DNA of 40,397 nt from a virus. Its lineage: Duplodnaviria > Heunggongvirae > Uroviricota > Caudoviricetes. The notes beneath the pieces are model-generated. The model was not told the origin of the DNA. It made no database searches and saw nothing but the letters and a program-made list of their open reading frames with translations. The translations under genes and the position numbers were made by a program. Below, one piece after another: positions 1 through 39,290 of the stretch (position 1 is the first letter of the stretch; the number at the start of each line of letters is the position of its first letter). The stretch lies in IMG/VR virus record IMGVR_UViG_2663763428_000010. One strand, 5' to 3'.

Positions 1-1251
1 GTGCTTACCGATACAAAATTAAAAAACCTCAAGCCGCAGGACAAACTGTACAAGGTCTCCGATCGTGACGGGCTGTATGTAGCTGTGCTTACGTCAGGCA
101 CGGTCTCGTTTCGCTATGACTACCGTATCAACGGTCGCCGCGAAACACTGGTAATCGGGCAGTATGGGCGTGACGGTATCAGTCTAGCAGAAGCGCGAGA
201 AGAACTGATTGCTGCAAAGAAGCTGCTTAAAGCAGGCCAGTCGCCGGCTGCGGCTAAACGTGACGGTATCAAAAAGATTCGTGGTGCCGAGACGTTTGCG
301 GTACATACCGACAGTTATATGAAACACGTCATCCTGGCTGACAGTACCCGCGCAATGAAGCAGGCGGTGATCGACCGTGACATACTTCCGGTTCTTGGCA
401 ACAAAATGATGGCTGAAATTACCACATCGATGGTTCGTGATTTGTGTGACCGGATTGTCGAACGTGGTGGTCGGGCAACAGCAGTACAGGCCAGGGAGAT
501 CATCAGCAGCGTATACCGTCACGCCAATGACCGTGGTCATGGTTTGTTTAATCCTGCGGCTGACATTAAACCTTCGTCTATCGCCATATTTAAACCACGA
601 GAGCGAACACTGACACCAGAAGAAATTGGCCTGTTCTTCCGCACGCTGGATGCCATTGGTGCTATGGGCACTATGAAAATGGCTTTAAAACTGGTGCTTA
701 TCACTATGGTTCGTAAGGGCGAATTCACCAATGCAACGTGGGATGAAATAGATTTTAAAAAATGGACATGGACAATTCCTCCAGACCGCATGAAGGGAAG
801 CCGGGCGCACGTTATTTACCTGCCTAAACAGGCACAGGATATATTGGTCGGGTTGCAGATGTGCGCTGGTGGAAGTGAATATCTGGTTCCTGGTCGTTAC
901 AATTTCCGGAAGCCATTATCTAATGCCGCGCTGAACTCTCTGATCGACAGAACGGTGAAAATAATAAATGAAGATGGTGAGCATATTCAGGATTTTACCG
1001 TACACGATATGCGCCGTACAGCCAGTACGTTGTTGCATGAGGCTGGTTATCCTTCAGACTGGATTGAAAAGGCTCTGGCACATGAGCAGAAAGGTGTGCG
1101 CGCCGTATATAACAAAGCGGAATACGCCAGACAGCGCGCCTACATGTTGCAGCAGTGGGCCGATATGATTGATTCCTGGATTAACGGGGAGCATACGGAT
1201 CTGATTCCGTTCTCCCCGTCGAAGTTTGAGAAGTGGATGGCGGGGGAATAA
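1..1251 (+). CDS. int: Tyrosine site-specific integrase, P4-like; start at window edge (GTG at 1, possibly a few codons missing)
   Basis: 416 aa ORF; N-terminus LTDTKLKNLKP..DGLY resembles P4/CP4-57-type integrases as recalled; C-terminal HDMRRTAST..Y region typical of tyrosine recombinases. Confidence 0.85.
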   Translation: MLTDTKLKNLKPQDKLYKVSDRDGLYVAVLTSGTVSFRYDYRINGRRETLVIGQYGRDGISLAEAREELIAAKKLLKAGQSPAAAKRDGIKKIRGAETFAVHTDSYMKHVILADSTRAMKQAVIDRDILPVLGNKMMAEITTSMVRDLCDRIVERGGRATAVQAREIISSVYRHANDRGHGLFNPAADIKPSSIAIFKPRERTLTPEEIGLFFRTLDAIGAMGTMKMALKLVLITMVRKGEFTNATWDEIDFKKWTWTIPPDRMKGSRAHVIYLPKQAQDILVGLQMCAGGSEYLVPGRYNFRKPLSNAALNSLIDRTVKIINEDGEHIQDFTVHDMRRTASTLLHEAGYPSDWIEKALAHEQKGVRAVYNKAEYARQRAYMLQQWADMIDSWINGEHTDLIPFSPSKFEKWMAGE

Positions 1252-1254
1252 CGT

Positions 1255-1449
1255 TTAATAGTTCTGCTGATTTTCTTCCATCTCGGCTTCTGCTGCCAGT
1301 GATTCAATTTTATCTGTGAATATTGCTGACAGTGTTGCAAATTCAGCATCAGTGACAGCGGGAATTGGAACAAACCTGATCCCGCTGTGTGCAAGCATGT
1401 TTGCAGTTTCAAGGCATTTCCTTAAATCTGCTGGTGATGCCCTGTTCAT
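1255..1449 (-). CDS. Small hypothetical protein (64 aa), last gene of leftward early operon
   Basis: ATG at 1449-1447 overlaps the methyltransferase TGA stop (ATGA coupling); below the 60 aa start-to-stop threshold so only seen as part of a longer track ORF. Confidence 0.35.
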   Translation of the reverse strand: MNRASPADLRKCLETANMLAHSGIRFVPIPAVTDAEFATLSAIFTDKIESLAAEAEMEENQQNY

Positions 1450-2096
1450 GCTGCACGCTCCCGTCCCTGGTTGTCTGTTGGTGACAGCGGAGCATTGCTG
1501 AATGCATTTGTTAATCTGGCAATATCCAACGCGTATCCAGGGTGTAGTTGCACTGCCGGGTCTTCGCACTGATTACCCCAAACATCGAAGCCATGAGACG
1601 ACTGGCGGGCGAACAGTTCAATGCGAGAAACATCGCCTAACAATTGCACAAGTTTTTCACGAACGACATCTGGTTTTCTTGAATGCTCAAGCCGCGGTGC
1701 GGTAAATGACTGAACGATCCATGCATTAATGCGCGGAGGTAGTTTTCCCTTTACTGCAAACAGGCAATCTTCACTATTGGCGCGAGTCATGTGACCCATA
1801 CCCATAACCAGTTTATCTGGTTGTCGACTACCACATTTTATCCACGTGAAGCCCTTCATCGTCATCAGACGAAATCCCCAGGCTTCAACAACTTTTAGTG
1901 CTTCGAGTGGTTGTGTTGGCACCCACCACATGGCCAACAGACAGTTTTCAGCGGTCAAATCCCACACAGGAAGGCGGCAGATATCCAGCACACTCATAAC
2001 CGGATATTTAAAACCGGCACCGCGATTACCATCTGCGGCTTTGTCCCGGTATACCCAGGGTGGATCTGCATAGATTAGTGTGTATTTCTTAGTCAT
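1446..2096 (-). CDS. MT-A70 family DNA N6-adenine methyltransferase
   Basis: DPPW motif (LIYADPPWVY) near N-terminus; ATG at 2096 preferred over the upstream GTG used by the ORF track. Confidence 0.8.
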   Translation of the reverse strand: MTKKYTLIYADPPWVYRDKAADGNRGAGFKYPVMSVLDICRLPVWDLTAENCLLAMWWVPTQPLEALKVVEAWGFRLMTMKGFTWIKCGSRQPDKLVMGMGHMTRANSEDCLFAVKGKLPPRINAWIVQSFTAPRLEHSRKPDVVREKLVQLLGDVSRIELFARQSSHGFDVWGNQCEDPAVQLHPGYALDIARLTNAFSNAPLSPTDNQGRERAA

Positions 2097-2388
2097 AAAC
2101 CACCCCACAACATCCTATGCCGCTATAGTCGCCACGGCGAAGGCCGTTACCTTTTGTGATACATTGGTCCCTGCGAACCGCGATCCTTGCACGTTCAACA
2201 TCACCAGAAGCAACATCCATACACTGAAGCCAAAGGTGAGCGGCAATGCGGAATTGCCCTTTTTTCTCTCTTTCAATCGCGCGTTTTTCGATCTCTATCG
2301 CCGCAGGAGTAACGGCGACAATCTTTGAAGGGCTGCGCATTGAAACCTTGTTCATGTGATATTTTTCAAGTCGGCTTAACTTTCTCAC
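2089..2388 (-). CDS. Hypothetical protein (99 aa as tracked; true start uncertain)
   Basis: ORF whose stop overlaps the methyltransferase start by a few nt; no recognisable domain. Confidence 0.4.
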   Translation of the reverse strand: MRKLSRLEKYHMNKVSMRSPSKIVAVTPAAIEIEKRAIEREKKGQFRIAAHLWLQCMDVASGDVERARIAVRRDQCITKGNGLRRGDYSGIGCCGVVYD

Positions 2389-2497
2389 TTAATCCAACCC
2401 TCTCTGAAAATTAATGCCAGCAGATAAAGCCATGCTGAAACAGAGGCCAGGAATAAGTACCATCCTGACCATTTGCTCCAGTGCCTTAGCAGCACAC

Positions 2498-2746
2498 TCA
2501 TGCCGCGTTGCTCACGGGACGATATACACGTTGCTGAACAGGAGGTTTTTTACCCTGGAACTCTGCCGGGCTTGCTGCCTGACGTTCATCAAGCCAACGC
2601 TCAACTTCATCACGGTTCCATGCGCAGCGTTTATCGGTGATATACCAGCGTTTAGGAAATTCCCCTGCGCGCTCCATACGGTCGATAGTGCTCCATGACA
2701 GTGGCACCACCGCCAGGAGTTCCTTCTTACCTAATGCACCTTTCAT
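2498..2746 (-). CDS. AlpA-family DNA-binding protein (excisionase/regulator-like)
   Basis: 82 aa; short HTH protein with the W..E(V/I)..W(L) signature typical of AlpA/Xis-like phage regulators. Confidence 0.65.
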   Translation of the reverse strand: MKGALGKKELLAVVPLSWSTIDRMERAGEFPKRWYITDKRCAWNRDEVERWLDERQAASPAEFQGKKPPVQQRVYRPVSNAA

Positions 2747-2795
2747 AAATACCTCTCTTGGTTGCAGTGCGGCGCGCGTGGCGCCGCGGTGGTGG

Positions 2796-3677
2796 TTACA
2801 TAGATGTTTCGTTTAATTCTTCCCGACGAACGCTGTAAACGTCGGTGGCTTTTGCCAGCAGTTCGTCATCATCTGAAAGTTTTTGTGCAATGTATTTGTA
2901 AGCCTTATCCAGTTCGGAGACAGTGCTGTAATTCATCGCTGCGCTGGTAAAGGCCATCAGCATTTCTTCTGGCTCACGGCTATCCGCTTTACGCGTTTGC
3001 TCATCAGGCTTTTTCACTGATTTAGCGTTGATCAGACTGTTCATTCCCGCAGCCGTAGTCATTTGCGGAGTAATGTCTCGCTCAACGCGCGGTGCCGTTT
3101 CCTGTAATTCGTCAGGGGTGTAAACACCGAGAAGTACATCAGGAGCGTGCAGGCGAGCCCATCGTTTCGTGCAAAGATAGGCAAGTTGCTGGCGCGGATC
3201 CTGTTCCCACAATGGAGAGTTACGCACTCCTGCTTGCGCCATACTGATGGTAAGCTCACGTGGTTCTGCTTCTCCTTTAAGAACTGCTGACACAGTTACC
3301 GTCAGATTCGGTGATTTATCTGTTTTGCCGTTAACATTCGACCAGTCACCGCTCCAGCGATAATTCAGGCGTGTCGCCAGCAGGCTGGAAGAGGATACGA
3401 CCGCGTTTACCAACTGTGCTTCGTAGCCTAACGTTCCGTTTACCACATGCGTTTTCTGCGCCACGGCGAAAGGGTTCATTCCCCACTGTGCCGCCTGCAT
3501 GGTCACCGCCAGGCAATCGGCAGGTTTGCCTTCAAGATGTTTCGGTACAGTCGCTTTGCTTTGTGACATCAACTCCGCGAAACGCACCAGTTGATTCATG
3601 CCCTCGGGGCTGAAGATTGCCGCAGCAGTGCCTACAGTTGCGCCTGGTTGTGATGTGATTGCGATATCATTGCTCAT
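2796..3677 (-). CDS. bet: Bet/RecT-superfamily single-strand annealing protein
   Basis: 293 aa; C-terminal ERDITP segment and overall layout resemble lambda Bet as recalled; sits directly downstream of the exonuclease with overlapping stop/start. Confidence 0.7.
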   Translation of the reverse strand: MSNDIAITSQPGATVGTAAAIFSPEGMNQLVRFAELMSQSKATVPKHLEGKPADCLAVTMQAAQWGMNPFAVAQKTHVVNGTLGYEAQLVNAVVSSSSLLATRLNYRWSGDWSNVNGKTDKSPNLTVTVSAVLKGEAEPRELTISMAQAGVRNSPLWEQDPRQQLAYLCTKRWARLHAPDVLLGVYTPDELQETAPRVERDITPQMTTAAGMNSLINAKSVKKPDEQTRKADSREPEEMLMAFTSAAMNYSTVSELDKAYKYIAQKLSDDDELLAKATDVYSVRREELNETSM

Positions 3678-4495
3678 ACGTACATATCCTGTTTACGTGC
3701 CCAGTCAGGGCGTTTAATAATTTCCACTCCGCCCCATTCATCGTTGATGCGGCATTCGTGATAGGTATTCAGATCCCGGCGGAACAGAGCGTGCCCGGCA
3801 TCGACATCCGGCGCATCCAGCTCGAACACGCGTACCGGATACCGACCACAATCAATGCTTTCGCTCACGGCAAGAAAGAAAAAACCATGTGGCTGACCAG
3901 TAACCCTCATTGCGCCTTCGCGGTACATTGCGTCCTGCACGTGGTAGCGGAACTCCTCGATGTGGCGTGCAAAACGGTCCATATCTGCAACCTTTTTCAC
4001 GTCGACGATCACGTTGTGCTCTTTCAGCCATTTGTCTGGACGAATTCGGCACAACTCACCCGTATCTTCATCGTTCCAGTACATTGATGCTTCGCAGTAA
4101 CCAGGTGCTTCCAACATCCAGCGTGCCGCCGGGTGAGCCATTGCGCTATCACGCATCAGCTCCAGTTTTCGCCACTGCTCTGCATCAAGTACCGAAATCC
4201 CCATATCCGCTACATCACGAATAAATGCCTCTTCGTCAGCTTTACCTTGTTTTGTCCGACGATCGAATTTCGGTGAAACGATGAAGCGTTTGTCAAACTC
4301 TCCAGGTTCCAGAAGCAGACAGTGCAGAGCAGTACCCATGTCCAGTGCAGACTTCTTCTCTTCGTCTTCCGGAGCAGCCTTCACCCATTTCAGAAGGGCA
4401 GGGTTCTTAGCCACCATATCTAGCTGCGACTTACTCACGCCGTCACCGGCGTGGTAGTCCTCGTTGCTGATATCGAAATAAATTCCCGGATTCAT
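3674..4495 (-). CDS. PD-(D/E)xK recombination exonuclease (RecE/exonuclease VIII-like)
   Basis: 273 aa; RPD...IVDVKK fits a PD-(D/E)xK motif; N-terminal GIYFDISNEDYHAG segment typical of phage RecE-like exonucleases; paired with bet. Confidence 0.6.
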   Translation of the reverse strand: MNPGIYFDISNEDYHAGDGVSKSQLDMVAKNPALLKWVKAAPEDEEKKSALDMGTALHCLLLEPGEFDKRFIVSPKFDRRTKQGKADEEAFIRDVADMGISVLDAEQWRKLELMRDSAMAHPAARWMLEAPGYCEASMYWNDEDTGELCRIRPDKWLKEHNVIVDVKKVADMDRFARHIEEFRYHVQDAMYREGAMRVTGQPHGFFFLAVSESIDCGRYPVRVFELDAPDVDAGHALFRRDLNTYHECRINDEWGGVEIIKRPDWARKQDMYV

Positions 4496-4791
4496 GCCGC
4501 GTCCCTCTGCCCATCAATCTGATCAGCCAGATCCCAGCGGGCGATAATTGCCATTGCCTCGCGCCGGTAGGCATCCATTAGTTCTTCGAACTCAGGGCTG
4601 TCTTTAGCGGCCTCCAGTACTTCCTGGCGAACGCCTTTAACTGTTACAACGTCGAAAGTTGATGCCAGTTGATGAAGCCGGATACTCTCAATCAGTTCAA
4701 CTTGTCGGTCATATAGCTGTTCTGACAGGCGGTAGTCCTTGTCGAATGCCAGCATGATTTTTTGAAGATTTTTCTGCTGATTAACGTTCAT
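4492..4791 (-). CDS. Hypothetical early protein (99 aa from ATG MNVNQQ)
   Basis: GGAGGG Shine-Dalgarno upstream of the ATG at 4791; stop overlaps exonuclease start. Confidence 0.5.
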   Translation of the reverse strand: MNVNQQKNLQKIMLAFDKDYRLSEQLYDRQVELIESIRLHQLASTFDVVTVKGVRQEVLEAAKDSPEFEELMDAYRREAMAIIARWDLADQIDGQRDAA

Positions 4792-4796
4792 TATCA

Positions 4797-4946
4797 GCCC
4801 TCCCATATCTCGTTATCGTTGGCCACATCGCGAGCTTCTTTGCTGACGAAAGCCCACTTAATGCCTTCCTGTAAGGTGCGGAACTTCCAGCTCATGAATC
4901 CGCATGCAGTAACGCAGTACCAACCGTTGATGATTTTCCACTGCAT
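4797..4946 (-). CDS. Small hypothetical protein (49 aa), first gene of leftward early operon
   Basis: ATG at 4946 preceded by GAGGTAA Shine-Dalgarno that lies inside an operator half-site; TGA stop just before the next gene RBS. Confidence 0.35.
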
Positions 4947-4965
4947 AACTTGTTACCTCGGTCTG

Positions 4966-5042
4966 TTACCGTTGAGGTAATAATTATTCGTATCTGGTTT
5001 GATGTCAATAGATATGAGTTAAAAAAATTACCCATTAGGTAA
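4966..5042 (-). promoter_or_regulatory. Leftward early promoter region with two operator palindromes (4966-4980 TTACCGTTGAGGTAA; 5028-5042 TTACCCATTAGGTAA)
   Basis: Two perfect TTACC-N5-GGTAA palindromes between the repressor terminator and the first leftward gene. Confidence 0.6.
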
Positions 5043-5052
5043 TCGAATAGGC

Positions 5053-5078
5053 AATAAAAAAGCCGCCAGAAGGCGGCT
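5053..5078 (-). terminator. Rho-independent terminator downstream of repressor gene
   Basis: AGCCGCC-AGAA-GGCGGCT hairpin preceded on plus strand by an A-tract (U-tract on minus strand). Confidence 0.65.
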
Positions 5079-5099
5079 TACTTACTGAAAAATATGATT

Positions 5100-5684
5100 T
5101 TATTGTTTGTTTTTTTCGTTCTGGTTGATGACAAATTCAATGTAACTTTCGATCTTTGCTTTCTCGGTTTCGGGTAACAATGCGTAGCGCGAGCGATCAT
5201 AGTTGATGGTCGCAGGGTCGTGCGGGTGAATCAGTAATTCATAGCCGTGACGCCCGAATGCGGATGCAACATTCTCCAGGGTGGAAATGGAAACGCTGAC
5301 CTCATTGTTTAACAGGCGGCTGATTGTCACCTGGGCGACGCCGGATGCGCGGTGAAGTTTTCCCTGTGTTGAAAGGTCGCGGCTTTCGCTCATCCAGCGT
5401 TCCAGGTTGTGAGCCGCAAGCTGACCTATATCGCTCGGGCCGACAGGCTGAAAACCCTCCTGAGAAAGCGAACGATCAATATCAAGCCAGTTACGGGGTT
5501 TATTGGCGGCAGCTTCAATTTTTCGTGCAACCTGGTCGCCGATAACCTTCTTGCCAAGAGCCCAGCGGTTTACCAGATTTGCCTGAGTTCCAAGTTTTTC
5601 TGCCATCCGCGTCTGAACACCATTGAATTCACGGTCGATCAAGTCGTTGAGATTTTGCCTGCGGACGTCCTGGATACTTTTCAT
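5100..5684 (-). CDS. Prophage repressor, tandem HTH_XRE domains, no S24 peptidase domain
   Basis: 194 aa; two Cro/CI-type HTH-like segments; divergent from a Cro-like gene across an operator-rich intergenic region. Confidence 0.7.
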   Translation of the reverse strand: MKSIQDVRRQNLNDLIDREFNGVQTRMAEKLGTQANLVNRWALGKKVIGDQVARKIEAAANKPRNWLDIDRSLSQEGFQPVGPSDIGQLAAHNLERWMSESRDLSTQGKLHRASGVAQVTISRLLNNEVSVSISTLENVASAFGRHGYELLIHPHDPATINYDRSRYALLPETEKAKIESYIEFVINQNEKNKQ

Positions 5685-5739
5685 TTTCTGGAAAATCGCC
5701 TCATATATGAATCAGTAGATGATTCAATTTAAAGCAATA

Positions 5740-5802
5740 TTACCCAACAGGTAAATGCACCCCACAGGTAACTATCCTTGATTTTTGTTACCTTATGGGT
5801 GA
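5740..5802. promoter_or_regulatory. Immunity-region operator cluster with three sites (5740-5754 perfect; 5757-5771 degenerate left half; 5788-5802 near perfect) and divergent promoters
   Basis: TTACCCAACAGGTAA, GCACCCCACAGGTAA, TTACCTTATGGGTGA between divergent repressor and cro-like genes; TTGATT -35-like hexamer at 5778-5783. Confidence 0.65.
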
Positions 5803-5838
5803 ATATTTATTATCTGAAATAAATATCAGGCAATAGCT

Positions 5839-6069
5839 ATGAGCGATAACGGACATTTCGATTTCAAAAAGCACTGGCTTGCACTTACTCCGGATGAGCG
5901 TGAAGCCTTCGCACAGGAAGCCGGAACGACGAGTCACTATATCCAGACTCACTTAACAGGTAAGCGCAAAATGCCAGGTAAGGTATTGATGAATGGGCTT
6001 TTTAAAGCCTGTAAAACAAGACAATGGCTGCGCTCAAAAGCAGAACTGGCATACTTCTTCTACTCATGA
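5839..6069 (+). CDS. Cro-like small DNA-binding protein
   Basis: 76 aa ORF divergent from the repressor, immediately downstream of the operator cluster. Confidence 0.55.
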   Translation: MSDNGHFDFKKHWLALTPDEREAFAQEAGTTSHYIQTHLTGKRKMPGKVLMNGLFKACKTRQWLRSKAELAYFFYS

Positions 6070-6090
6070 TATCCAGCCACAACCCTCTGT

Positions 6091-6116
6091 AGACCGCCAT
6101 CCGGCGGTCTTTTCAT
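6091..6116 (+). terminator. Rho-independent terminator after cro-like gene
   Basis: AGACCGCC-ATCC-GGCGGTCT hairpin followed by TTTTC. Confidence 0.6.
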
Positions 6117-6124
6117 ATCTATTC

Positions 6125-6139
6125 GTACCTCAAAGGTAA
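6125..6139. promoter_or_regulatory. Operator palindrome (GTACCTCAAAGGTAA) upstream of the replication operon
   Basis: Family member of TTACC-N5-GGTAA with one mismatch, directly after the cro terminator. Confidence 0.5.
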
Positions 6140-6219
6140 TAAAAAACCAAATATGGTTGATCTTTTTTTTGTGTCAGCACAAAATAACCGTAATCCCAAT
6201 ACTAATAACAGGGCTTACC

Positions 6220-6420
6220 ATGGAAATCATTACACGTATTGATGCCGCAAAGCGCGGACTTAAACGCTACTACACCGGAAAACCATGTAAGCACGGACAT
6301 GACAGTGAACGCTGGGTTTACAACGGACACTGTGTTGAGTGCACCATGGAATCAAACCGTCGCATCAGGGCAGAGATTAAGCAGATCATGATTAATTCCT
6401 CCCCACAACACTCAAGCTGA
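6220..6420 (+). CDS. Small Cys/His-rich hypothetical protein at the cII-equivalent position
   Basis: 66 aa from ATG at 6220; track ORF begins upstream at a TTG, rejected; PCKHGH...GHCVEC motif. Confidence 0.45.
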   Translation: MEIITRIDAAKRGLKRYYTGKPCKHGHDSERWVYNGHCVECTMESNRRIRAEIKQIMINSSPQHSS

Positions 6421-6435
6421 TAGCGGAGATTAATC

Positions 6436-7251
6436 ATGAGCAGACATGCAACAGATTGGGCCTGGGAGACAGATCCAGGTAGCTCATCATTAAAGCTCAT
6501 ACTGCTCTCGATGGCTGACAGAGCCGATGAATATAACCTCTGCTACCCCAGCATAGAACGCCTCGTTAAAGACACTTGCCTGAATAAAAAAACCGTGCAG
6601 GCCGGGCTTATATCGCTCATGAAAATGGGGCTTATTTCAGATACCGGAGAGAGAAAGGGAGCGACAAAAAGAGTGCGGGTTTTCTCTCTTAATATAACCA
6701 AAAACGGGAACATTAAAGGCAACCGGGAGGGGGGCAATGAACCAGAAAACGGTAATGTTACCGAAAACGGGAATATACCCAAAAACGGGATGTTGAATGA
6801 TCCCAAAAACGGGATGTTGAATGATCCCAAAAACGGGATCCAGAACCAGTCATATAACCAGTCATTTAACCAAGAGAGGGAGAGCAGGACAAAAAACGGG
6901 GATTCTGTGCATCATGACCCCGGCGCAAACAACGCCGTGATGAATAACTTTGTTCCTCCTGGTGGGCCAGGGCAATTAGGCAAATTTGTCATGCATGAAC
7001 AATGGCAGCCATCAGATGACTTTCTTCGGAAAAGCTCATTGCAGGGGATCTACCTGGACAGTCTGCCAACGGCACAGGAACTTGCAGAGTTCAGAATTTA
7101 CTGGATGGCTGAGGGTAAGGCATACCATCAGGCACAGTGGGAGCAGAAGCTGGCAAGGCGGCTGCAGATTAGCAGACAGAAGCAATCAACATTATCTGAT
7201 AACAACGTTCCGCACTGGAACAGCCCTGAAGCATGGGAGGATTTCTTGTGA
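6436..7251 (+). CDS. Replication initiator, lambda O-like, N-terminal HTH
   Basis: 271 aa; N-terminal HTH-like domain; internal iteron-like DNA repeats; stop overlaps the P-like gene start. Confidence 0.7.
   Translation: MSRHATDWAWETDPGSSSLKLILLSMADRADEYNLCYPSIERLVKDTCLNKKTVQAGLISLMKMGLISDTGERKGATKRVRVFSLNITKNGNIKGNREGGNEPENGNVTENGNIPKNGMLNDPKNGMLNDPKNGIQNQSYNQSFNQERESRTKNGDSVHHDPGANNAVMNNFVPPGGPGQLGKFVMHEQWQPSDDFLRKSSLQGIYLDSLPTAQELAEFRIYWMAEGKAYHQAQWEQKLARRLQISRQKQSTLSDNNVPHWNSPEAWEDFL
6697..6841. repeat. Iteron-like direct repeats (core CCAAAAACGGGA) including an exact 24-bp tandem duplication at 6778-6825; candidate replication origin
   Basis: Repeated motif at 6697, 6741, 6759, 6778, 6802, 6826 and 6888; followed by AT-rich repeated CCAGTCAT(A/T)TAACCA. 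Confidence 0.55.
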
Positions 7252-31530: not shown

Positions 31531-31556
31531 AGGCCGCTTTCGCGGCCTTGTTTTTA
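31531..31556 (+). terminator. Rho-independent terminator
   Basis: AGGCCGC-TTTC-GCGGCCT hairpin followed by TGTTTTTA. Confidence 0.7.
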
Positions 31557-31715
31557 ACGAATGCCACCGCCGCCCGGGCGGGAATCCGCAGAACGCCCAC
31601 CGCAGCGGGAGCCGTCAGCGGCAGTATCGCTGTCGTGCTGACAACGGCCGGCAAAGGCCTGAGTTGAAGCTACCAGAGACAACAAAACGAACAGTGCAGC
31701 AAATGCTTTTTTCAT
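31554..31715 (-). CDS. Small signal-peptide protein candidate
   Basis: MKKAFAALFVLLSLVASTQAFA signal-like N-terminus followed by a short GC-rich Cys-containing tail; weak RBS. Confidence 0.25.
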   Translation of the reverse strand: MKKAFAALFVLLSLVASTQAFAGRCQHDSDTAADGSRCGGRSADSRPGGGGIR

Positions 31716-31798
31716 TGTGAAAAATTTCCATCTATAAGCCACCTCAATGTGGCGTCAATGAGTGTAGCACTGACTTTTGTTTCGTCCATAAAAAACTA

Positions 31799-32311: not shown

Positions 32312-32624
32312 CGAATTCCTCTTCCTTCATATGCGTTTCTAATGAGTTAAGCTGGCGGAAAGATATCTCTTTTGATTCTGCAGATGAGAGTTTTTTTATC
32401 CGCTTTATATTCTTTGTGATAGGAATAGACATTGTATGCACATCAGCGGATGCTCTTGGCTTTGTGCTGATAAAAATATGGCGCAATGCCGCATTTTCAC
32501 TATTGAACGAGCCAATAGCTGATTTACGTGCTACAACCTTACCAGTAAAAATACGACTCTTGCTACGCTTTGCATGAGTTCCGCTTCTTACCGGACCTCT
32601 CATCACGAATCCAAGTTTTGTCAT
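32298..32624 (-). CDS. Basic small protein, candidate partner/antitoxin of the downstream toxin-like gene
   Basis: 108 aa; GGAG RBS; overlaps the downstream gene by 14 nt; acidic C-terminus EEEFDVFE. Confidence 0.45.
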   Translation of the reverse strand: MTKLGFVMRGPVRSGTHAKRSKSRIFTGKVVARKSAIGSFNSENAALRHIFISTKPRASADVHTMSIPITKNIKRIKKLSSAESKEISFRQLNSLETHMKEEEFDVFE

Positions 32625-32666
32625 CTTTAATCTCCGGTAAGTTACAGGTATAAAATAAAAACAGGT

Positions 32667-32681
32667 TTACCTTTAAGGTAA
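32667..32681 (-). promoter_or_regulatory. Operator palindrome (TTACCTTTAAGGTAA) upstream of the two-gene toxin-like operon
   Basis: Perfect TTACC-N5-GGTAA about 45 bp upstream of the start at 32624, in an AT-rich promoter-like region. Confidence 0.5.
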
Positions 32682-32753
32682 TAGTACGCTATTCACCCCC
32701 GGTCTGCAATCTGTACAGAATTATTTAAAGGCACATCCCTGTGCCGCCGCCCG

Positions 32754-33464
32754 TCAGAAGAACCCTGCCTTGTCGTTGATGTACTCCGCGTGCGTCTGGA
32801 TATCACGCAGGCATTTACTCACACCGACGATGTAGCAGAACATGGTGGTCAGCTCCGCCGCCGCGCCCGATACGTCGTGCCCGTCGTCCTGCAACTGATT
32901 CAGCAGATTCATCAGCAATGAGTTCTCCGTCAGGCCGAGAACACCAGACGGCGAATGAATCAGACTGCGGTAGCCGGGCTTCAGTGGGGCACTGTAGGTT
33001 TTGTTCTCTATCTTCATTGCCTGCATCACTGCTGACGCCGTGGCGTTGGCTACCTGGTCGGCAACCATCTTTATGCGTTCTTCCTGCGGGAACGAGTTTT
33101 TAATGTAGCTTCCTGTTCGACGGATCTGAGGAAGTACCTCACCTGTAACCCATTTACGAAAGCGGTAGGGGATAGTGCCTAGTGTCACTGCGTCGCGGCA
33201 GCGGAGGATCAGTGTGTAGAGGCCTGACTCGGAGATGATGTTGATCTCTTTTACTCGGCTGTCAAAAATTGCACGATGTTCATGCCCTATGTTGAACATA
33301 GACCTTTCATCATCATCCAGTTTTTCAAGTGCTTGGGTGACGTTTTGGATACGCAGCGCACTACAAACGTCTTGGGCTACAAACCATGGTTGGCCATCGA
33401 TAATGATGGAACGGATAGGGTTAACAGATTCAAATTTGAAGATGGCAGTTTGAGCATTAGCCAT
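32754..33464 (-). CDS. Bro-N domain antirepressor-like protein
   Basis: N-terminal Bro-N-like segment; ATG at 33464 with GGAG RBS; C-terminal domain homologous to the small protein at 34613-34870. Confidence 0.65.
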   Translation of the reverse strand: MANAQTAIFKFESVNPIRSIIIDGQPWFVAQDVCSALRIQNVTQALEKLDDDERSMFNIGHEHRAIFDSRVKEINIISESGLYTLILRCRDAVTLGTIPYRFRKWVTGEVLPQIRRTGSYIKNSFPQEERIKMVADQVANATASAVMQAMKIENKTYSAPLKPGYRSLIHSPSGVLGLTENSLLMNLLNQLQDDGHDVSGAAAELTTMFCYIVGVSKCLRDIQTHAEYINDKAGFF

Positions 33465-33733
33465 GGTGGTTATCTCCACTTAGTGATTTTAATCACCACC
33501 GCAACGCCAATTACTGGTGGTGAACTGGACAAGGTTGGCGTACCGGCCTAAGTGGTACCGGTGTCCTTTCGGACCCCTGCCCAGCCCACCATAATTCGGA
33601 TATAGCTGTGCTTAACGCATAAAAAAACCACGTCTGGCGTGGTATGCGCCACTTAGTAACCCGGGACGCCAATCCCGGCACTGGATTTTGCCAGTGCCCG
33701 ATTACTATGGCACAAGAGGAGTGCGATGTAAAT

Positions 33734-33748
33734 TTACCGCAAAGGTAA
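33734..33748 (-). promoter_or_regulatory. Operator palindrome (TTACCGCAAAGGTAA) upstream of antirepressor gene
   Basis: Perfect TTACC-N5-GGTAA in the long leader upstream of the Bro-N gene. Confidence 0.5.
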
Positions 33749-33826
33749 TGATAAGCGCGGATAAATATTAAAATCAACCGTATTTGGTTGATTACGTTTA
33801 ACGCTTGATCACCTGAAAGCAAGATA

Positions 33827-33841
33827 TTACCTTTAAGGTAA
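33827..33841 (+). promoter_or_regulatory. Operator palindrome (TTACCTTTAAGGTAA) upstream of membrane zinc-ribbon gene
   Basis: Perfect palindrome 20 bp upstream of ATG 33862; TTGATC -35-like hexamer at 33804-33809. Confidence 0.5.
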
Positions 33842-33861
33842 TGTTATTGTGAGGAAAAGCA

Positions 33862-34590
33862 ATGGAAGTTTTCTGGATAGTTGTTGGTGTGGTTGCGGTG
33901 ATTATTTACGTTATCAACCAGAACAAGACTAAGATCTCTGATCGTACGGTCGTTAATCATAACAAAACGATAAAGACCGAAGATGGGGAGATAACGATTA
34001 ATCGTACACAGGTGATAGAACACACCTCTACTCAGTTTCAAAAAACTGGAGGTAATGCGCCTGATATTTCCGCACCTCCTGCTTATGATAGTGCGGTAAT
34101 CCAGACATATTATAAACAGCAGGAGTTAGCAAAAGAGAGGCAACTGATTCAGCCAAAGCCGTTTACAGCTGAGCTTCCACCTGGAGTGTCAACGCGTCCG
34201 GCATATCATGGAAGATTCCCTGGTGATGACATATCGTCTCAGTCATCTAAAAAAGCACCTCAGGCAGTATCAGAGCCAGCAAGAATAACTTCTGTATCGC
34301 CGCCAAAAGAAGAATCAGCTAACAGAGTTTCAAGTGGTAGCAAGCAGTGCTTGCGATGCAGAATAAACCTTCCATATGAAAAATTCAGGAAATCGTCAAA
34401 AAATCCAGATGGATTGACTAAGTGGTGTGCAAGGTGTCTCGATGGCCCAAAGAATACACGCCATATGAAGTGGTGCCCAATTTGTAATGTCCGCAGAAAA
34501 CGAACCAGCTTTTACCCTAATAATCAAAATGCGGACGGCTTAATGGCATGGTGCAAAACGTGCTGGGATGAGCACAAAGCGAAACGATAG
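33862..34590 (+). CDS. Membrane-anchored protein with two tandem C4 zinc-ribbon repeats
   Basis: 242 aa; N-terminal TM helix; two repeats of CxxC-x21/22-CxxC sharing DGL...WC...C. Confidence 0.6.
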   Translation: MEVFWIVVGVVAVIIYVINQNKTKISDRTVVNHNKTIKTEDGEITINRTQVIEHTSTQFQKTGGNAPDISAPPAYDSAVIQTYYKQQELAKERQLIQPKPFTAELPPGVSTRPAYHGRFPGDDISSQSSKKAPQAVSEPARITSVSPPKEESANRVSSGSKQCLRCRINLPYEKFRKSSKNPDGLTKWCARCLDGPKNTRHMKWCPICNVRRKRTSFYPNNQNADGLMAWCKTCWDEHKAKR

Positions 34591-34614
34591 GCCGCTCTTG
34601 CGGCCTTTAAATTT
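34589..34614. terminator. Hairpin terminator between convergent genes
   Basis: AGGCCGC-TCTT-GCGGCCT followed by TTAAATTT. Confidence 0.45.
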
Positions 34615-34870: not shown

Positions 34871-34946
34871 CTTATCTTCTCCATGCAATAACTGTATATT
34901 TATACAGTATCAAATAATTTGTTTGCTATCCAGCACGTTTTGCAAA

Positions 34947-35065: not shown

Positions 35066-37228
35066 ATGACGGTCTCAACCGAAGTTAACCACAACGAATA
35101 CACAGGTAATGGTGTTACGACCACATTCCCTTACACCTTTAGGGTTTTCAATAAATCTGATCTGGTGGTGCAGGTGATTGACCTTGAAGAAAATATCGCT
35201 GTGCTGGCTCCTGATACTGATTACACAGTTACCGGGGCGGGAAGCTATTCAGGTGGGAGCGTTGTGTTGATGTCACCTCTGGCCAACGGATGGCAAATCT
35301 CTATCTCACGTGACTTGCCTGTTACCCAGGAGACTGATCTGCGTAACCAGGGGAAATTTTTCGCAGAGGTACATGAGGATGCGTTCGACAAGCTGACCAT
35401 GCTTATCCAGCAGTGCTTCAGCTTTCTCCGCCTGGCGCTGCGTAAGCCGTCGTTCATCGCGAACTATTACGACGCACTCAACAACCGCATTCGTAATCTG
35501 CGTGACCCGTCACAGGCACAGGATGCAGCAACAAAATCTTATGTGGACTCGGGAGATAATGACAGCACTCATCATGCAGATGGTCTTTTCCAGCGAACTT
35601 TGCGAGTTCCGGAAAGTCAGGTAGGAATCATGGCATCTGTACGAGCCAGAGCAAATATGCTGATTGGATTCAATGACCAGGGGGATCCTGTTCCGATTGC
35701 AGGGCAAACTGAAACGGCAGATTTGGCAATCAAGCTAGCATCAAAAGACGGTGCTGGCTTAGTTGCTACGGAAACAGGAAGAACGGTAGAGGCTTCTATT
35801 CGTGCTGCGTCTGGATCATCACAGGCCCTTTTCCCAAATTTCGTCAATAAATTAACAGCTTATCGGCATGGGGTTTCTGGCTATCAGAACTTATTTCGAC
35901 TCTATGGGTTTGGTTCTTCTGTTGGGGTTGGTGCTACGCTTCCTGATCCAGCAACACAGGCACCAGTTGCTAAATTTTTTGAGTATATGAACGATACGCT
36001 AAATAAGCAGCGTATTTATCCCATTAACTTCACAAACAAATCTGTTAATGGTTCAACGATAAATAATTTTATTGTTAACCAATGGCCTGAAGTTGTTGCT
36101 GAAGGAATATATCCTGATATTGCTTTGTTTATATATGGAATGAATGATTTTCCTACCGCACAATATAATGCCGGGCAAACATTCAATGAAAACGGATTTA
36201 AACAGCGCCTTCGAAATGCTATTAATTTAGTCAGGGAGGCCGGCGGGGATGTTGTGCTAACAACCACACCTCATCCGAATATTTCTGAATATAGCTGGAG
36301 CATGCCGGCTGGAATTTCTCAAATATGGCCTTCATATTCTCCGGCCCCAGTCTCTGATAATAACATTATACCATCTGCCGCAAACTCAAATGTCACGTTT
36401 GAGTGGAATGGGGTAAATATTCAAGCAGGTGTCCGCTTCCTTCGAGGAAACGATGCGATCAGGAAAATCGCTGTAGAAATGGGTTGCGTGCTTATCGATG
36501 TGGAAAAATACTGGTTTGATGCTGTTGCTAAATATGGTGAAACGGCATTATTTGACCGGACCCCTGAAATACAGACTGTTCACCCTAACCTTTTAGGTCA
36601 TCAGCAATCATACTGGCTGGCTTTCGAGGATTTCTTTAGAAATCTGGACAGGAACGGATGGATTCCTGCAGTTGCAAATCATTATGATGTTTTTGATGTC
36701 GGTGGAAAAGCGACTTTCCCTAATCCACGTACTGCAGATATTGATCTGCAGAGCAACGGGATCAGAGATAATGCATACATTCATCGAGATCAATTTGCTC
36801 GTCCTCTACTGACAATCGGTCATACTGGCGTGAGAACCAAGACCTGGTATACCTCTCAAGACCCTGCAGCAAATGCAGGTTATAGCATTAGCTGGATAGA
36901 TTACGGAACTCGTTTTCAAGGTCTGGTAAATACAGGTGAAGTCAAATCCATCGCAATACCAAACAGAACGACGCAGAGAATCCTTATCGATGCTTGGTCT
37001 TCTGCACAAAACACCTGGGCTGAATGTTTAGAGCTACTCGTTGCTAACCGTGAGGGTACCATTTCAATATCGATCACAGGTGAACTCGATACCACTCCAC
37101 CGGCGGGGGGCGGAACGTCAGGCGGACGGCGCTTATTCTCTATTTCAGCGGGGAGTGGTGTATTAAACATAACTGTTAATGTTGATCTCTCTACGCTAAA
37201 AGTTAGAGTCGGCGGTTTCAGCGCTTAA
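35066..37228 (+). CDS. Tailspike / tail fiber with T7 gp17-like N-terminal adaptor and SGNH esterase-like domain
   Basis: 720 aa; N-terminus NHNEYTGNGVTTTFPYTF typical of T7-type fiber N-domains; SGNH-like blocks GFGSS, GMND and VHPN. Confidence 0.75.
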   Translation: MTVSTEVNHNEYTGNGVTTTFPYTFRVFNKSDLVVQVIDLEENIAVLAPDTDYTVTGAGSYSGGSVVLMSPLANGWQISISRDLPVTQETDLRNQGKFFAEVHEDAFDKLTMLIQQCFSFLRLALRKPSFIANYYDALNNRIRNLRDPSQAQDAATKSYVDSGDNDSTHHADGLFQRTLRVPESQVGIMASVRARANMLIGFNDQGDPVPIAGQTETADLAIKLASKDGAGLVATETGRTVEASIRAASGSSQALFPNFVNKLTAYRHGVSGYQNLFRLYGFGSSVGVGATLPDPATQAPVAKFFEYMNDTLNKQRIYPINFTNKSVNGSTINNFIVNQWPEVVAEGIYPDIALFIYGMNDFPTAQYNAGQTFNENGFKQRLRNAINLVREAGGDVVLTTTPHPNISEYSWSMPAGISQIWPSYSPAPVSDNNIIPSAANSNVTFEWNGVNIQAGVRFLRGNDAIRKIAVEMGCVLIDVEKYWFDAVAKYGETALFDRTPEIQTVHPNLLGHQQSYWLAFEDFFRNLDRNGWIPAVANHYDVFDVGGKATFPNPRTADIDLQSNGIRDNAYIHRDQFARPLLTIGHTGVRTKTWYTSQDPAANAGYSISWIDYGTRFQGLVNTGEVKSIAIPNRTTQRILIDAWSSAQNTWAECLELLVANREGTISISITGELDTTPPAGGGTSGGRRLFSISAGSGVLNITVNVDLSTLKVRVGGFSA

Positions 37229-37317: not shown

Positions 37318-37719
37318 ATGTCCGCATCGCTAACAGCTGATACGATAAATCAGGGGCTTAGCTACGGTGCGCTGGCGGCAGTCATCGCCGGCGTACCTCC
37401 TGAAGTGGCGCTTGGATCGCTGGCTGGGGCGGTGATTTTTGTTACCTCTGCAGTAGAGTATCCCATTCGTCGTCGTGTGCTCCTGTCGATGCTTAGCTTT
37501 CTCTGCGGACTTCTTTTCTATAAACCAGCAGCATCAATTCTTATCGGCATAGCCAGCCTGATCCCTACCATCACGCAGGACTCTTTCGAGAAAGGGATTG
37601 TTTTCTCTGCTGGTGCATTCGTGTCAGCAATCGTTGCAGTTCGAATTGGCATCTGGCTCTATCACCGTTCCGATAATCCACGCGAGTTAATTCCGAGGAG
37701 AAAAGGCGATGGTAACTAA
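37318..37719 (+). CDS. Holin (three predicted TM segments)
   Basis: About 133 aa from ATG 37318 (track start GTG 37309); hydrophobic helices and charged C-terminus; first gene of lysis cassette. Confidence 0.6.
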   Translation: MSASLTADTINQGLSYGALAAVIAGVPPEVALGSLAGAVIFVTSAVEYPIRRRVLLSMLSFLCGLLFYKPAASILIGIASLIPTITQDSFEKGIVFSAGAFVSAIVAVRIGIWLYHRSDNPRELIPRRKGDGN

Positions 37720-38017
37720 TGAGCTTGTTTTGCTTATCACCAATGCACTTATTTGTACTGGCATAGCAATTCGTGTTGTCACATTCCGGCGTAACGGTTC
37801 ACAACATCGAAGGTGGGGAGGGTGGCTTGCTTATTTCCTTATTGTTGCTGCGGCCAGTATTCCTGTTCGTGTCGTCTATGCAATCTGGTTACGCACGCCA
37901 ATGGCTGTGGATTTATCTGAGGTCATTATCAACGCTGTCATGCTTGCTGCGGTTCTTAAAACTCGCGGTAACGTCGTTCAGATTTTCAAAATAACGAGGT
38001 CTAAACATGGAGATTAA
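37709..38017 (+). CDS. Second holin-like small membrane protein (holin/antiholin candidate)
   Basis: 102 aa with hydrophobic helices; overlaps flanking lysis genes. Confidence 0.5.
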
Positions 38018-38636
38018 ACAATTCCAGCGAGCTGCTGGTATTAGCGAGGCGCTGGCCGCACGCTGGTTCTCGCATATAACTTCTGCGATGAAAGAGTTTG
38101 GTATCAGCAAACCAGAAGATCAGGCAATGTTTATTGCTCAGGTCGGGCATGAGTCTGGAGGTTTCACCCGGTTGCAGGAAAATTTCAACTACAGCGTCAG
38201 CGGACTGGCTAACTTTGTTCGGGCTGGGCGTCTCACTCAGGGGCAGGCCAACGCATTGGGGCGACGCGCAGGCGAACCACCATTGCCACCTGAGCGCCAG
38301 AGAGCGATTGCCAATCTGGTGTACAGCAAACGCATGGGCAACAATGCTCCTGGCGATGGCTGGAACTACCGTGGGCGCGGACTTATCCAGATTACCGGTT
38401 TGAATAACTATCGTGACTGTGGAAACGGCCTGAAAGTGGACCTGCTGGAAAATCCTGAACTGCTGGCGCAGGACGAATACGCGGCTCGTAGCGCGGCGTG
38501 GTTCTTCTCCAGCAAAGGCTGCATGAAGTATACCGGAGATATTGCACGTGTAACTCTGCTTATCAATGGTGGCCGGAACGGCATTGATGACCGGCGCGCG
38601 CGATACATCACTGCCAGTAAGGTGCTGGCGGTATGA
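38007..38636 (+). CDS. Endolysin, glycoside hydrolase family 19 (chitinase-like lysozyme)
   Basis: 209 aa; [12 protein letters not shown] motif characteristic of GH19; GAGG RBS. Confidence 0.8.
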
Positions 38637-39130
38637 TCTGGGCATTCGCAAAAGCATACTGGAAACAGTTGGTTATCATGGCGATGCTTGCTGTTCTGGT
38701 CATATCAGGAGTTGTAGCCTGGAATGCACACGGCAGTCGTCAGTACGACGCCGGGTATGCGCAGGCACAGGAAGATCAGAAACAGGCTGATGATAAGGCC
38801 AGGTCACAACGTGATCAGGAGAAAACACAAATTGAACGTGAAGCACAATCCCGTATCGATGTGGCGCGTGTTGATGCTGGGCATGCTAATGCCGCTGCTG
38901 ACAGCCTGCGCGCCGAGCTTGACAAAACCAAGCGACTCGCCGAACACTATACCGGATCTTTCCCCACTGGCACGCCAGCCAGCAAGGTCATCGGTGTGCT
39001 CGCCGACATGCTTGAAGAAAGCAACCGAGTTTACAACGCAACAGCAGCTGAGGCTGAAAAGTATCGGATTGCAGGAGAATCCTGCGAACAGCAATACGAT
39101 TCACTGAAGAAGCAAAAATCGTGGTACTGA
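38633..39130 (+). CDS. Rz-like i-spanin
   Basis: 165 aa; N-terminal TM helix followed by coiled-coil periplasmic domain; ATGA overlap with endolysin stop. Confidence 0.7.
38859..39107 (+). CDS. Rz1-like o-spanin lipoprotein embedded in the +1 frame of Rz
   Basis: [17 protein letters not shown] signal with lipobox LLTAC; Pro-rich mature part; fully contained within Rz; exact start among nearby ATGs uncertain. Confidence 0.5.
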   Translation: MWRVLMLGMLMPLLTACAPSLTKPSDSPNTIPDLSPLARQPARSSVCSPTCLKKATEFTTQQQLRLKSIGLQENPANSNTIH

Positions 39131-39257
39131 TTTTCGGTGACGGTATATAAAACGGTACGGTGAAAATCAGGATGCAGAAAGTTGTTGTCAGTCAATTGGT
39201 TATGTATGTCGTAAATAATTGAGTGGGAATGATTTTGATCCCTGCACTATGAATGAA

Positions 39258-39290
39258 CAAAACCCTCTGTTACTACAGAGGGTTTTTTAT
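39258..39290. terminator. Bidirectional rho-independent terminator at right end of lysis cassette
   Basis: AACCCTCTG-TTACTA-CAGAGGGTT hairpin flanked by ACAAAA and TTTTTAT. Confidence 0.7.

Follow-up and report, generated by a model that had tools for sequence, protein, structure and literature searches.

Temperate podoviruses of the genus Uetakevirus, whose type member is epsilon15 (NC_004775), have been characterised since 2007. In phage vB_EcoP_ZX5 (ZX5, MW722083), overexpression of ORF21 showed that this protein controls lysogeny, and overexpression experiments with the antirepressor have also been published. The core ATTGAGTGGGAATGATT of the phage and host attachment (att) sites, attP and attB, is published for ZX5, phiV10 (NC_007804), and epsilon15 and lies at the 3' end of guaA. 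In addition, Uetakevirus prophages are induced 21- to 47-fold by a DNA-damaging microcin. Here we analyzed the IMG/VR virus record IMGVR_UViG_2663763428_000010, the whole 40,397-nucleotide stretch of which is called the window below. It very probably holds an apparently intact, integrated temperate podovirus of Uetakevirus (epsilon15/phiV10 group) at the guaA 3' end of Escherichia coli. An earlier inspection of the letters and reading frames, here called the sequence-only reading, had described a mosaic genome in which a lambda-like early region and replication genes are joined to a T7-like virion module and a P4-like integrase. Each of these modules survives at some level; however, the combination is not unusual, because published Uetakevirus phages carry it in the same order. 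The lambda, T7, and P4 patchwork is real, yet it is the normal architecture of a common phage group and is already known.

The assignment is carried by nucleotide identity. Two halves of the window were compared by megablast with 50,697 phage records. Bases 1-20000 showed 97-98% identity over 81-87% to phiv142-3 (MN187550), vB_EcoP_PAS61 (PAS61, OQ921333), ZX5, HEMP4, and TL-2011b, and the rest of the window showed 95-97% identity over 65-70% to those phages and phiV10. All of the best-matching phages belong to Uetakevirus, the epsilon15-like temperate podoviruses. The whole-genome comparison that the sequence-only reading had proposed as a check thus returned isolated, published phages at about 97% identity over 65-87% and no new hybrid. 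Gene by gene (tblastn), the window proteins are 96-100% identical to those of phiV10 and PAS61 and 28-94% identical to those of epsilon15, and the gene order of both stretches, terS to Rz and int to gp49, is that of all three phages. The genes named by the sequence-only reading are present in the order it gave. On the host side, positions 38900-40397 are 100% identical to three E. coli chromosomes, including NZ_CP028578.2, in which the right-end and tail-module segments that were tested are also 100% identical and whose RefSeq gene table shows the same prophage layout between guaA and yfgI. E. coli WCHEC005784 is a 100% identical carrier of the prophage. Among 5426 complete E. coli genomes, the Rz-attR-yfgI-yfgH junction was covered to at least 80% in 551 and the segment from the tail adaptor gene to the gp14-family gene was found in 535. 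About 10% of complete E. coli genomes therefore carry a Uetakevirus prophage of the window's type.

The boundaries agree with this assignment. A second copy of ATTGAGTGGGAATGATT, attL, lies at the guaA stop codon, 207 bp to the left of the window's first base in the host record, and the left prophage end is thus outside the window, at the guaA 3' end. Because the two att cores flank the element, the prophage spans about 39.4 kb and its right end is position 39234, compared with phage genome sizes of 39.1-39.9 kb. The sequence-only reading had let the stretch run to 39290; the prophage ends at the attR core instead. A terminator-like hairpin at 39259-39286 lies beyond the core and therefore belongs to the host side of the junction. 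The integrase is built from Arm-DNA-bind_3 (DUF4102 type), Phage_int_M, and Phage_integrase domains. It aligns with P4 Int from end to end (28% identity over 409 amino acids (aa), E = 5e-41), whereas lambda Int gave 20% identity over only 244 aa, so the P4-like integrase of the earlier account holds. The same protein is 99% identical to the integrases of phiV10 and PAS61. Likewise, the excisionase is 38% identical to P4 ORF88 (E = 6e-10) and belongs to a family, phrog_66, described as "excisionase and transcriptional regulator." Sequence and the published att site show that these two proteins act in integration and excision at the 17-bp core.

The virion genes combine an epsilon15-type head with a neck and tail that recall T7. 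The terminase genes are 99-100% identical to those of phiV10 and are not of the T7 type, and the major capsid protein is of the epsilon15 type (GP7 family, PF20911), whereas the T7 capsid belongs to PF21703. The portal, on the other hand, is T7-like, as had been claimed: PF12236 is common to the window portal (623 bits) and T7 gp8 (379 bits), and the two proteins are also linked by reciprocal matches to PHROGs 332 and 449. An AlphaFold2 model of the tail adaptor (predicted local distance difference test score (pLDDT), 88) was searched with Foldseek. It matched the Carin-1 connector, 8ck1_E (E = 4e-16), then other podovirus adaptors; T7 gp11 was recovered as 7box_N with E = 4e-6 and a template modeling (TM) score of about 0.6, and tail tubular protein A (TTPA) of KP32 was also matched. 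The 154-aa protein shares phrog_308 with T7 gp13, and the 179-aa protein matches PF24072 (T7_gp14) with 32.8 bits, above the cutoff of 27. Among the three large virion proteins, that of 837 aa carries a lysozyme/transglycosylase domain at residues 249-399, and T7 gp16, with its N-terminal transglycosylase, has a muralytic domain as well. The order and sizes of these genes (201, 823, 154, and 179 aa, the large proteins, and the fibre) mirror T7 genes 11-17. The N-terminal anchor of the tailspike, which is 64-68% identical to those of epsilon15, phiV10, and PAS61, has PHROGs 1640, 8460, 2710, and 27277 in common with the T7 gp17 N terminus. The designation gp17-type is suggested by these four families; PF03906 (Phage_T7_tail) was not matched by the tailspike at E<0.01.

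A close relationship to T7 was rejected. When 54 window proteins were compared with T7 by tblastn, no virion gene was matched at E<1, and neither were the RNA polymerase and DNA polymerase at T7 positions 3171-5822 and 14353-16467. All large open reading frames (ORFs) of the window are otherwise assigned. As the T7 virion genes cannot be detected by tblastn, any shared ancestry must be ancient, and the "T7-like virion module" is right only as distant homology plus synteny, that is, at the level of profile, fold, and gene order but not of direct comparison. The epsilon15 record already carries an HHpred note on the T7 likeness of gp11. The particle would have an HK97-fold capsid of the epsilon15 type, made with the help of a protease and of cement and staple proteins. 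Its neck and tail, from the portal through adaptor, nozzle, gp13, and gp14 to the large ejection proteins, would be distant homologues of T7 genes 8 and 11-17 in the same order, and six tailspikes would be held by the gp17-type N terminus, with an SGNH esterase domain in the receptor part. All structural genes for such a short-tailed particle with an internal core are present.

The early region resembles lambda in layout. A leftward operon, starting at the strong promoter-like site 5008-4980, comprises two small genes and the genes of the PD-(D/E)XK nuclease and RecT, along with those of the excisionase, the PerC-family activator, the MT-A70 methyltransferase, and the DUF1382 protein, and rightward the cro-like gene is followed by a 66-aa gene, the initiator, a lambda P homologue, and a nin-like block. 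By tblastn against lambda, only P, the DUF1382 protein (50% identity to orf63), and the N terminus of Ea22 were matched. No window protein matched lambda exo, bet, or gam, and no lambda homologues of CI, Cro, CII, N, Q, or the C-terminal part of O were found among the window proteins. The "Bet/exonuclease" pair previously called lambdoid must be renamed, as the two genes encode RecT and an exonuclease VIII-type nuclease. In contrast, P is a true homologue (31% identity over 201 aa, E = 1e-30). The initiator is O-like only N-terminally, where residues 1-154 match O-like PHROGs, and is of the DnaT type C-terminally. Five or six iterons CCCAAAAACGGG at 6690-6900 lie inside the initiator gene, which likely contains the origin, as in lambda. 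The lambdoid character claimed for O/P holds for P and, in the N-terminal half, for the initiator. Replication is predicted to use this initiator, with iterons in its own gene, together with the lambda P-type helicase loader. Overall, "lambda-like" describes mostly architecture, and the homology is narrow.

Control of lysogeny departs further from lambda. The repressor and cro-like genes form a divergent pair with repeated operators between them, as the term lambdoid implies; however, the repressor is not of the LexA/CI type. Its Pfam matches are only to HTH_3, HTH_26, LacI-like, and YdaS-like families, and no S24 (LexA-like) self-cleavage domain was found by Pfam in its 194 aa. Its sequence is shared in full (100% identity) with the phiV10 repressor and ZX5 ORF21. 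The operator motif TTACC-N5-GGTAA has 15 matches in the window at <=1 mismatch against 0.57 expected, and 14/15 are intergenic; the middle copy in the right operator (OR) region is more degenerate and was seen only in a repeat scan. Operators follow the cro terminator, precede the nin-like block (two copies), lie between a terminator and terS (two copies), and stand before the gp3/portal unit. Single copies also stand before the toxin pair, at the antirepressor promoter, before the 242-aa gene, and before the tailspike. The genomes of phiV10, PAS61, and epsilon15 have 11-15 copies of the motif each, against a single copy in T7 and another in the lambda segment, and the epsilon15 RefSeq record annotates the corresponding positions as repressor-binding sites. 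The layout of terminator and operators before terS is the same in epsilon15, including the annotated repressor site. Because the TTG start of terS at 11744 would enclose the terminator and both operators, this start is probably mis-called in RefSeq and in phiV10; ATG 11824 is the likely terS start and fits the shorter epsilon15 TerS better.

Lysogeny would then be held by a repressor with two helix-turn-helix (HTH) domains and no self-cleavage, predicted to bind the operators of the left operator (OL) and OR regions as well as those before the replication-distal genes, terS, the gp3/portal unit, the tailspike, the toxin pair, the antirepressor cassette, and the 242-aa gene. From the distribution of the motif we infer that most transcription units are silenced directly, so that the lytic units would be shut off without an N-to-Q antitermination cascade. 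The sequence-only reading had noted that no Q- or N-like antiterminator was recognisable, and had left room for a Q-like protein among the small hypothetical genes. In Pfam and PHROG searches, no small or early-region ORF matched an N or Q antiterminator family, which bears out the first statement and leaves no candidate by family match for the second; a literature search on epsilon15 antitermination found nothing relevant. Direct repression unit by unit fits this absence, which is no anomaly and goes with a different regulatory design of operators and antirepressors.

The window encodes two candidate antirepressors for this repressor without self-cleavage. The stand-alone 85-aa protein is 43% identical to residues 155-228 of the Bro-N/Ant protein (E = 4e-16). 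The near-consensus LexA box CTGTATATTTATACAG upstream of its gene is unique in the window and is kept in epsilon15 and phiV10, and the 85-aa protein is likely an SOS-triggered antirepressor. Similarly, isrK, the C4 RNA, and the Bro-N/Ant gene follow each other on one strand in an immI-like cassette (32754-33697, minus strand), which phiV10 shares but epsilon15 and PAS61 lack, so that it is optional within the genus. Induction probably proceeds through both routes, with the LexA-controlled 85-aa protein as the putative SOS input and Bro-N/Ant kept behind the C4 and isrK antisense RNAs, as in P1 immI and Gifsy-1. These routes would explain SOS inducibility, and the model fits both the ZX5 antirepressor overexpression and the microcin induction of Uetakevirus prophages.

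Late gene timing allows for a further player. The last gene before the packaging genes encodes a 112-aa epsilon15 gp49-like protein with a basic N terminus and a conserved C-terminal CxxC...CxC motif. It has no Pfam or PDB match, hhalign of its family against lambda Q and N gave a probability of <1%, and its AlphaFold2 model (pLDDT 59) was unusable. The 12-bp palindrome GTGACATGTCAC (GTGAC-N2-GTCAC) has three exact copies in the window, all of which adjoin intrinsic terminators and borders of variable regions. It occupies the same three homologous positions in epsilon15 (39612, 2142, and 19517) and PAS61 and two of the three in phiV10, the third coinciding with the point at which the linear phiV10 record was opened; identity among relatives breaks directly after the palindrome. 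The related-loci search returned only loci of the 112-aa family with at least 95% identity, and more diverse members were drawn from the phage collection and scans seeded with N15 and Vibrio sequences. In ZF40 (66% protein identity), the palindrome (2785) lies 3 nt after the stop codon. In N15, gp46 is 34% identical and its stop codon is overlapped by GTGACTGGTCAC, with palindromes at 28550, 33237, and 39269; the link between gp46 and palindrome holds in 49/49 N15-like contigs, with no other copy in the 3.3 kb covered in each. Vibrio K308-type phages (31% identity) have a copy about 230 bp downstream in 3/3 loci. The gene and the palindrome are therefore linked across podo-, myo-, and siphovirus-type temperate phages. 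Among them the half-sites of the palindrome are retained and its central bases differ, as would be expected of a protein-binding site.

These observations raise the idea that the late genes are switched on by a non-homologous Q analogue, the 112-aa protein and its sites forming an undescribed regulator-site pair that acts as a late switch or as read-through control at operon boundaries. We regard this as unlikely, albeit worth keeping in mind. The position of the gene directly before the terminator and terS, the conserved placing of the palindromes, and their link to the gene in distant phages speak for such a pair. However, the protein has neither Q/N homology nor a usable structure, no terminator follows the site in ZF40 or N15, and the operators before the late units offer another route of control. 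Moreover, N15 carries the gene and the palindromes and also its own annotated late activator, gp40, so that the 112-aa family need not be a late switch; as a straightforward Q analogue the protein is weakened accordingly. A promoter-like match at 11700-11729 (GTGACA-18-CATGAT) was rejected as a late promoter. In 26/80 related IMG/VR contigs, the palindrome and the terminator are separated by a gene of about 70 aa. Of this gene the window keeps only the last ~30 bases, so that the difference (11712-11752 in the window compared with 3348-3580 in one relative) is an indel bounded by the palindrome; the apparent "-10" element is a remnant of the gene's 3' end and is not conserved. The palindrome is also probably not a site for a host factor (CRP, LexA, or LacI-type), since its spacing is unlike the CRP consensus TGTGA-N6-TCACA and the LexA consensus CTGT-N8-ACAG. 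Direct repression with antirepressor-driven induction remains our preferred account of the regulation.

Several points weigh against the reading of the window as an intact Uetakevirus prophage with a T7-related tail and operator-based control. The proteins formerly called tail tubular A/B-like have the right positions, and the adaptor matches gp11 at the level of fold; however, Pfam Tube and Phage_nozzle were not matched by adaptor and nozzle, and a profile built from 40 adaptor sequences gave no hhalign signal with T7 gp11, which leaves the adaptor linked by fold only. The nozzle is linked through the Carin-1 "Tail Nozzle" and its own size and position. The three large internal proteins are present and one has a muralytic domain, but homology to T7 gp15/gp16 was not demonstrated, as none of the three shares a PHROG or Pfam family with them, and the 824-aa protein is without a PDB match. 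Late promoters were not located, a sigma-70 scan having given fewer sites than shuffled sequences. LexA binding, antirepressor activity of the 85-aa protein, and repressor binding to the late-region operators are predictions from sequence, and the inducibility of this very copy is predicted from its genes alone.

In addition, RefSeq flags two genes of the nin-like region as partial, and the gene that separates the 112-aa gene from terS in 26/80 related contigs is missing here, as might be expected of a defective (cryptic) remnant that merely resembles Uetakevirus. We consider such a remnant very improbable, because both att cores are present at a distance that equals the phage genome size, the conserved genes from int to Rz are full-length and 96-100% identical to those of plaque-forming phages, and in relatives the variable genes are dispensable. 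The strong form of the sequence-only reading, a new and recent hybrid of a lambdoid and a T7-like phage, can be dismissed: although the affinities of the modules differ (P4-type integrase, lambda P, T7-family portal, gp13, and gp14) and the receptor part of the tailspike is 52-54% identical to those of the T7-like phages K30 and KpV289, the same combination and order recur in epsilon15, phiV10, TL-2011b, PAS61, ZX5, and about a tenth of E. coli genomes, the failure of tblastn to detect T7 virion genes points to ancient shared ancestry, and the RNA and DNA polymerases of T7 are missing.

The intact Uetakevirus prophage thus has little weight as a finding, being of standard architecture for its genus and carried by roughly a tenth of the E. 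coli genomes sequenced. Its practical value is in annotation, namely the boundaries and the guaA att site, recombination genes of the RecT/RecE type rather than Red, a repressor without self-cleavage, the antirepressors, and the tailspike. Late-gene timing without N or Q is the remaining biology, for which the late-unit operators and the palindrome linked to the 112-aa gene are of note. The coordinates of all features are collected in Table 1.

Table 1 Features of the window, in order of position (operator starts listed last)
Feature	Position	Strand	Evidence or remark
P4-type tyrosine integrase, 416 aa	1-1251	+	PF13356, PF22022, PF00589
DUF1382 protein (lambda orf63-like), MT-A70 adenine methyltransferase, PerC-family activator	1255-2340	-	RefSeq of identical locus
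PerC-family transcriptional activator	2089-2340	-	phrog_868, transcriptional activator
AlpA/Vis-type excisionase/regulator, 82 aa	2498-2746	-	phrog_66, 2e-16
RecT	2796-3677	-	PF03837, 1.4e-31
RecE-type PD-(D/E)XK exonuclease (DUF3799)	3674-4495	-	PF12684, 2e-22; phrog_412 exonuclease VIII, 3e-124
OL region	4950-5084		TTACC-N5-GGTAA at 4966-4980 and 5028-5042
Sigma-70-like promoter	5008-4980	-	Best of scan; in OL region
Repressor-gene terminator	5079-5060	-	Within OL region
Prophage repressor, 194 aa	5100-5684	-	Two HTH domains; phrog_8
OR region, three operator copies	5738-5804		5740-5754, 5759-5772 (variant), 5788-5802
Cro-like repressor, 76 aa	5839-6069	+	phrog_35, 5.6e-13
Terminator after cro-like gene	6091-6110		Operator 6125-6139
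Replication initiator	6436-7251	+	HTH_36 N terminus, DnaT C terminus
Lambda P-type helicase loader	7248-8033	+	PF06992, 1.5e-56, 191 bits
Nin-like variable region	8151-11372	+	DUF1064, Eae/Ea22-like, DUF551, NinX; operators 8071 and 8133 upstream
112-aa epsilon15 gp49-like protein	11365-11703	+	PHROG 536 (phrog_536), 1e-53; last gene before packaging genes
Palindrome GTGACATGTCAC, copy 1	11700-11711		Overlaps stop codon of 112-aa gene
Terminase small (Terminase_2 family) and large subunits	11744-13890	+	PF03592; phrog_2
Terminator 11753-11770, operators 11790-11804 and 11808-11822	11753-11822	+	Before ATG 11824
Palindrome GTGACATGTCAC, copy 2	13965-13976		Just after terL, beside hairpin 13941-13960
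Gp49-family protein	13981-14337	-	Accessory leftward unit 13981-14617
tRNA-Arg(TCT)	14541-14617	-	ARAGORN; Rfam 73 bits; between terL and portal
Operator upstream of accessory leftward unit	14940-14954		
Portal, T7 gp8 family	15266-16945	+	PF12236
Head genes	17241-20146	+	Prohead protease, capsid, Bbp16-type cement, gp9-like, gp10 staple
Tail adaptor (201 aa, T7 gp11 fold) and nozzle (823 aa)	20146-23222	+	
T7 gp13 homologue (154 aa) and gp14-family core protein (179 aa)	23222-24225	+	
Three large virion proteins, 837, 600, and 824 aa	24238-31030	+	Match epsilon15 gp15-17
Palindrome GTGACATGTCAC, copy 3	31519-31530		After last virion-block gene; abuts terminator 31531-31548 (+)
YafO-like toxin and overlapping upstream 108-aa gene	31799-32624	-	Operator 32667-32681
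Bro-N/Ant antirepressor	32754-33464	-	PF02498; phrog_130 Ant
C4 antisense RNA	33513-33596	-	RF01695, 63.6 bits (gathering score 45)
isrK Hfq-binding RNA	33621-33697	-	RF01394, 67.7 bits, above gathering score
Operator at promoter-like site of antirepressor cassette	33734-33748		
242-aa protein	33862-34590		phrog_6762; operator 33827; terminator 34589-34606
Ant C-terminal-domain protein, stand-alone, 85 aa	34613-34870	-	epsilon15 gp19-like; phrog_1760 anti-repressor
LexA box CTGTATATTTATACAG, near-consensus	34892-34907	-	22 bp upstream of 85-aa gene
Tailspike	35066-37228	+	gp17-type N-terminal anchor, ~residues 1-234, and exchangeable receptor part
Lysis cassette	37318-39130	+	Two holin-family proteins, GH19 endolysin, Rz/Rz1
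Rz1 embedded in Rz	~38859-39107	+	Lipobox LLTAC
attR core ATTGAGTGGGAATGATT	39218-39234	+	Single copy in window
Host genes yfgI and yfgH	39327-40397	-	Not phage
Intergenic operator starts	4966, 5028, 5740, 5788, 6125, 8071, 8133		
Intergenic operator starts (continued)	11790, 11808, 14940, 32667, 33734, 33827, 34947		

The receptor part of the tailspike (35768-37225) contains an SGNH/GDSL esterase domain (PF13472) and shows 52-63% identity to the tail fibres of phages that are annotated as infecting Klebsiella or E. coli, the T7-like K30 and KpV289 among them, which is normal receptor-domain exchange; the likeness suggests a receptor in common with Klebsiella phages and K30. The lysis cassette was confirmed at the far right after the tailspike, where the sequence-only reading had placed it, and this is its standard position in epsilon15 and phiV10. 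Lysis would be effected by the holins, the GH19 endolysin, and Rz/Rz1. The YafO-like protein, named YafO family in RefSeq and weakly matched in Pfam, and the 108-aa protein are probably a toxin-antitoxin cargo pair absent from phiV10, PAS61, and epsilon15. The 242-aa gene is absent from the same three phages, and its product carries repeated C-terminal zinc-ribbon-like segments resembling endonuclease VII/Lar-type motifs. At the tRNA-Arg locus, phiV10 has an overlapping annotated hypothetical protein, PhiV10p04, which is probably spurious. PerC/Pch-type proteins activate virulence loci in pathogenic E. coli, and the PerC-family activator of the leftward early operon may take part in cross-talk with the host.

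Compared with lambda, the early region has in common the order int, xis, recombination genes, left promoter (PL)/OL, repressor, OR/right promoter (PR), cro, initiator, P, and nin, as well as more than one operator in both OL and OR, initiator-gene iterons, and relatives of P, orf63, and ea22. It differs in that the window repressor has no S24 domain, operators also precede the late units, and the lysis genes do not lie beside a Q gene. With T7, the window shares the portal family, the gp13 PHROG, the gp14 Pfam family, and the gene order (portal, capsid, adaptor, nozzle, gp13, gp14, large proteins, and fibre), with an adaptor that resembles gp11 in fold and a tailspike N terminus probably of the gp17 type. 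However, where T7 has the gp9 scaffold, the window has a protease with cement and staple proteins; the terminase genes precede the portal gene and represent another family; and in place of gp15 and gp16 there are three large proteins, in a phage that is temperate and has no phage RNA polymerase. The closest solved structures are those of Carin-1 (PDB 8CK0/8CK1), a marine phage of another host, Cobetia marina, whose neck and tail proteins were compared: portal (8ck0_A, E = 5e-179), nozzle (solved as "Tail Nozzle," E = 7e-217), adaptor (E = 3e-26), and tailspike N terminus (E = 5e-27).

Satellite P4 shares the full-length integrase similarity, the arm-binding domain, and the Vis/AlpA-type excisionase, and the resemblance does not extend beyond the integration module. 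P4-type integrases typically, but not universally, target the 3' end of a tRNA gene, whereas the target here is the guaA 3' end. For the antirepressors, the counterparts are the immI locus of P1/P7 (C4 RNA-ant) and the isrK locus of Gifsy-1; the window likewise has C4 and isrK directly upstream of an Ant-type gene. LexA-controlled antirepressors are known from coliphage 186 (Tum) and the Gifsy phages, and the window likewise has a small Ant-domain gene behind a LexA box and a repressor without self-cleavage.

Within the genus, epsilon15 shares the gene order, the operator half-sites, the palindrome positions, and the LexA box before gp19. Unlike the window, it is devoid of lambda P, of the tRNA, and of the Bro-N/C4/isrK cassette, and it has serotype-conversion genes and another tailspike. 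Differences from phiv142-3, PAS61, ZX5, and phiV10 lie in the variable blocks, which are the nin-like segment 8557-11022, the region 31040-34600 with the toxin pair and the 242-aa gene, and the tailspike receptor part. An O-antigen acetyltransferase gene follows the tailspike in phiV10 and PAS61, whereas the window has none, and RecT and the nuclease are two genes in the window but one annotated fusion in phiV10. These four phages are the closest counterparts of the prophage, having in common with the window about 97% nucleotide identity over most of the genome, the gene order, the repressor, the attP core, the guaA site, and the tRNA-Arg.

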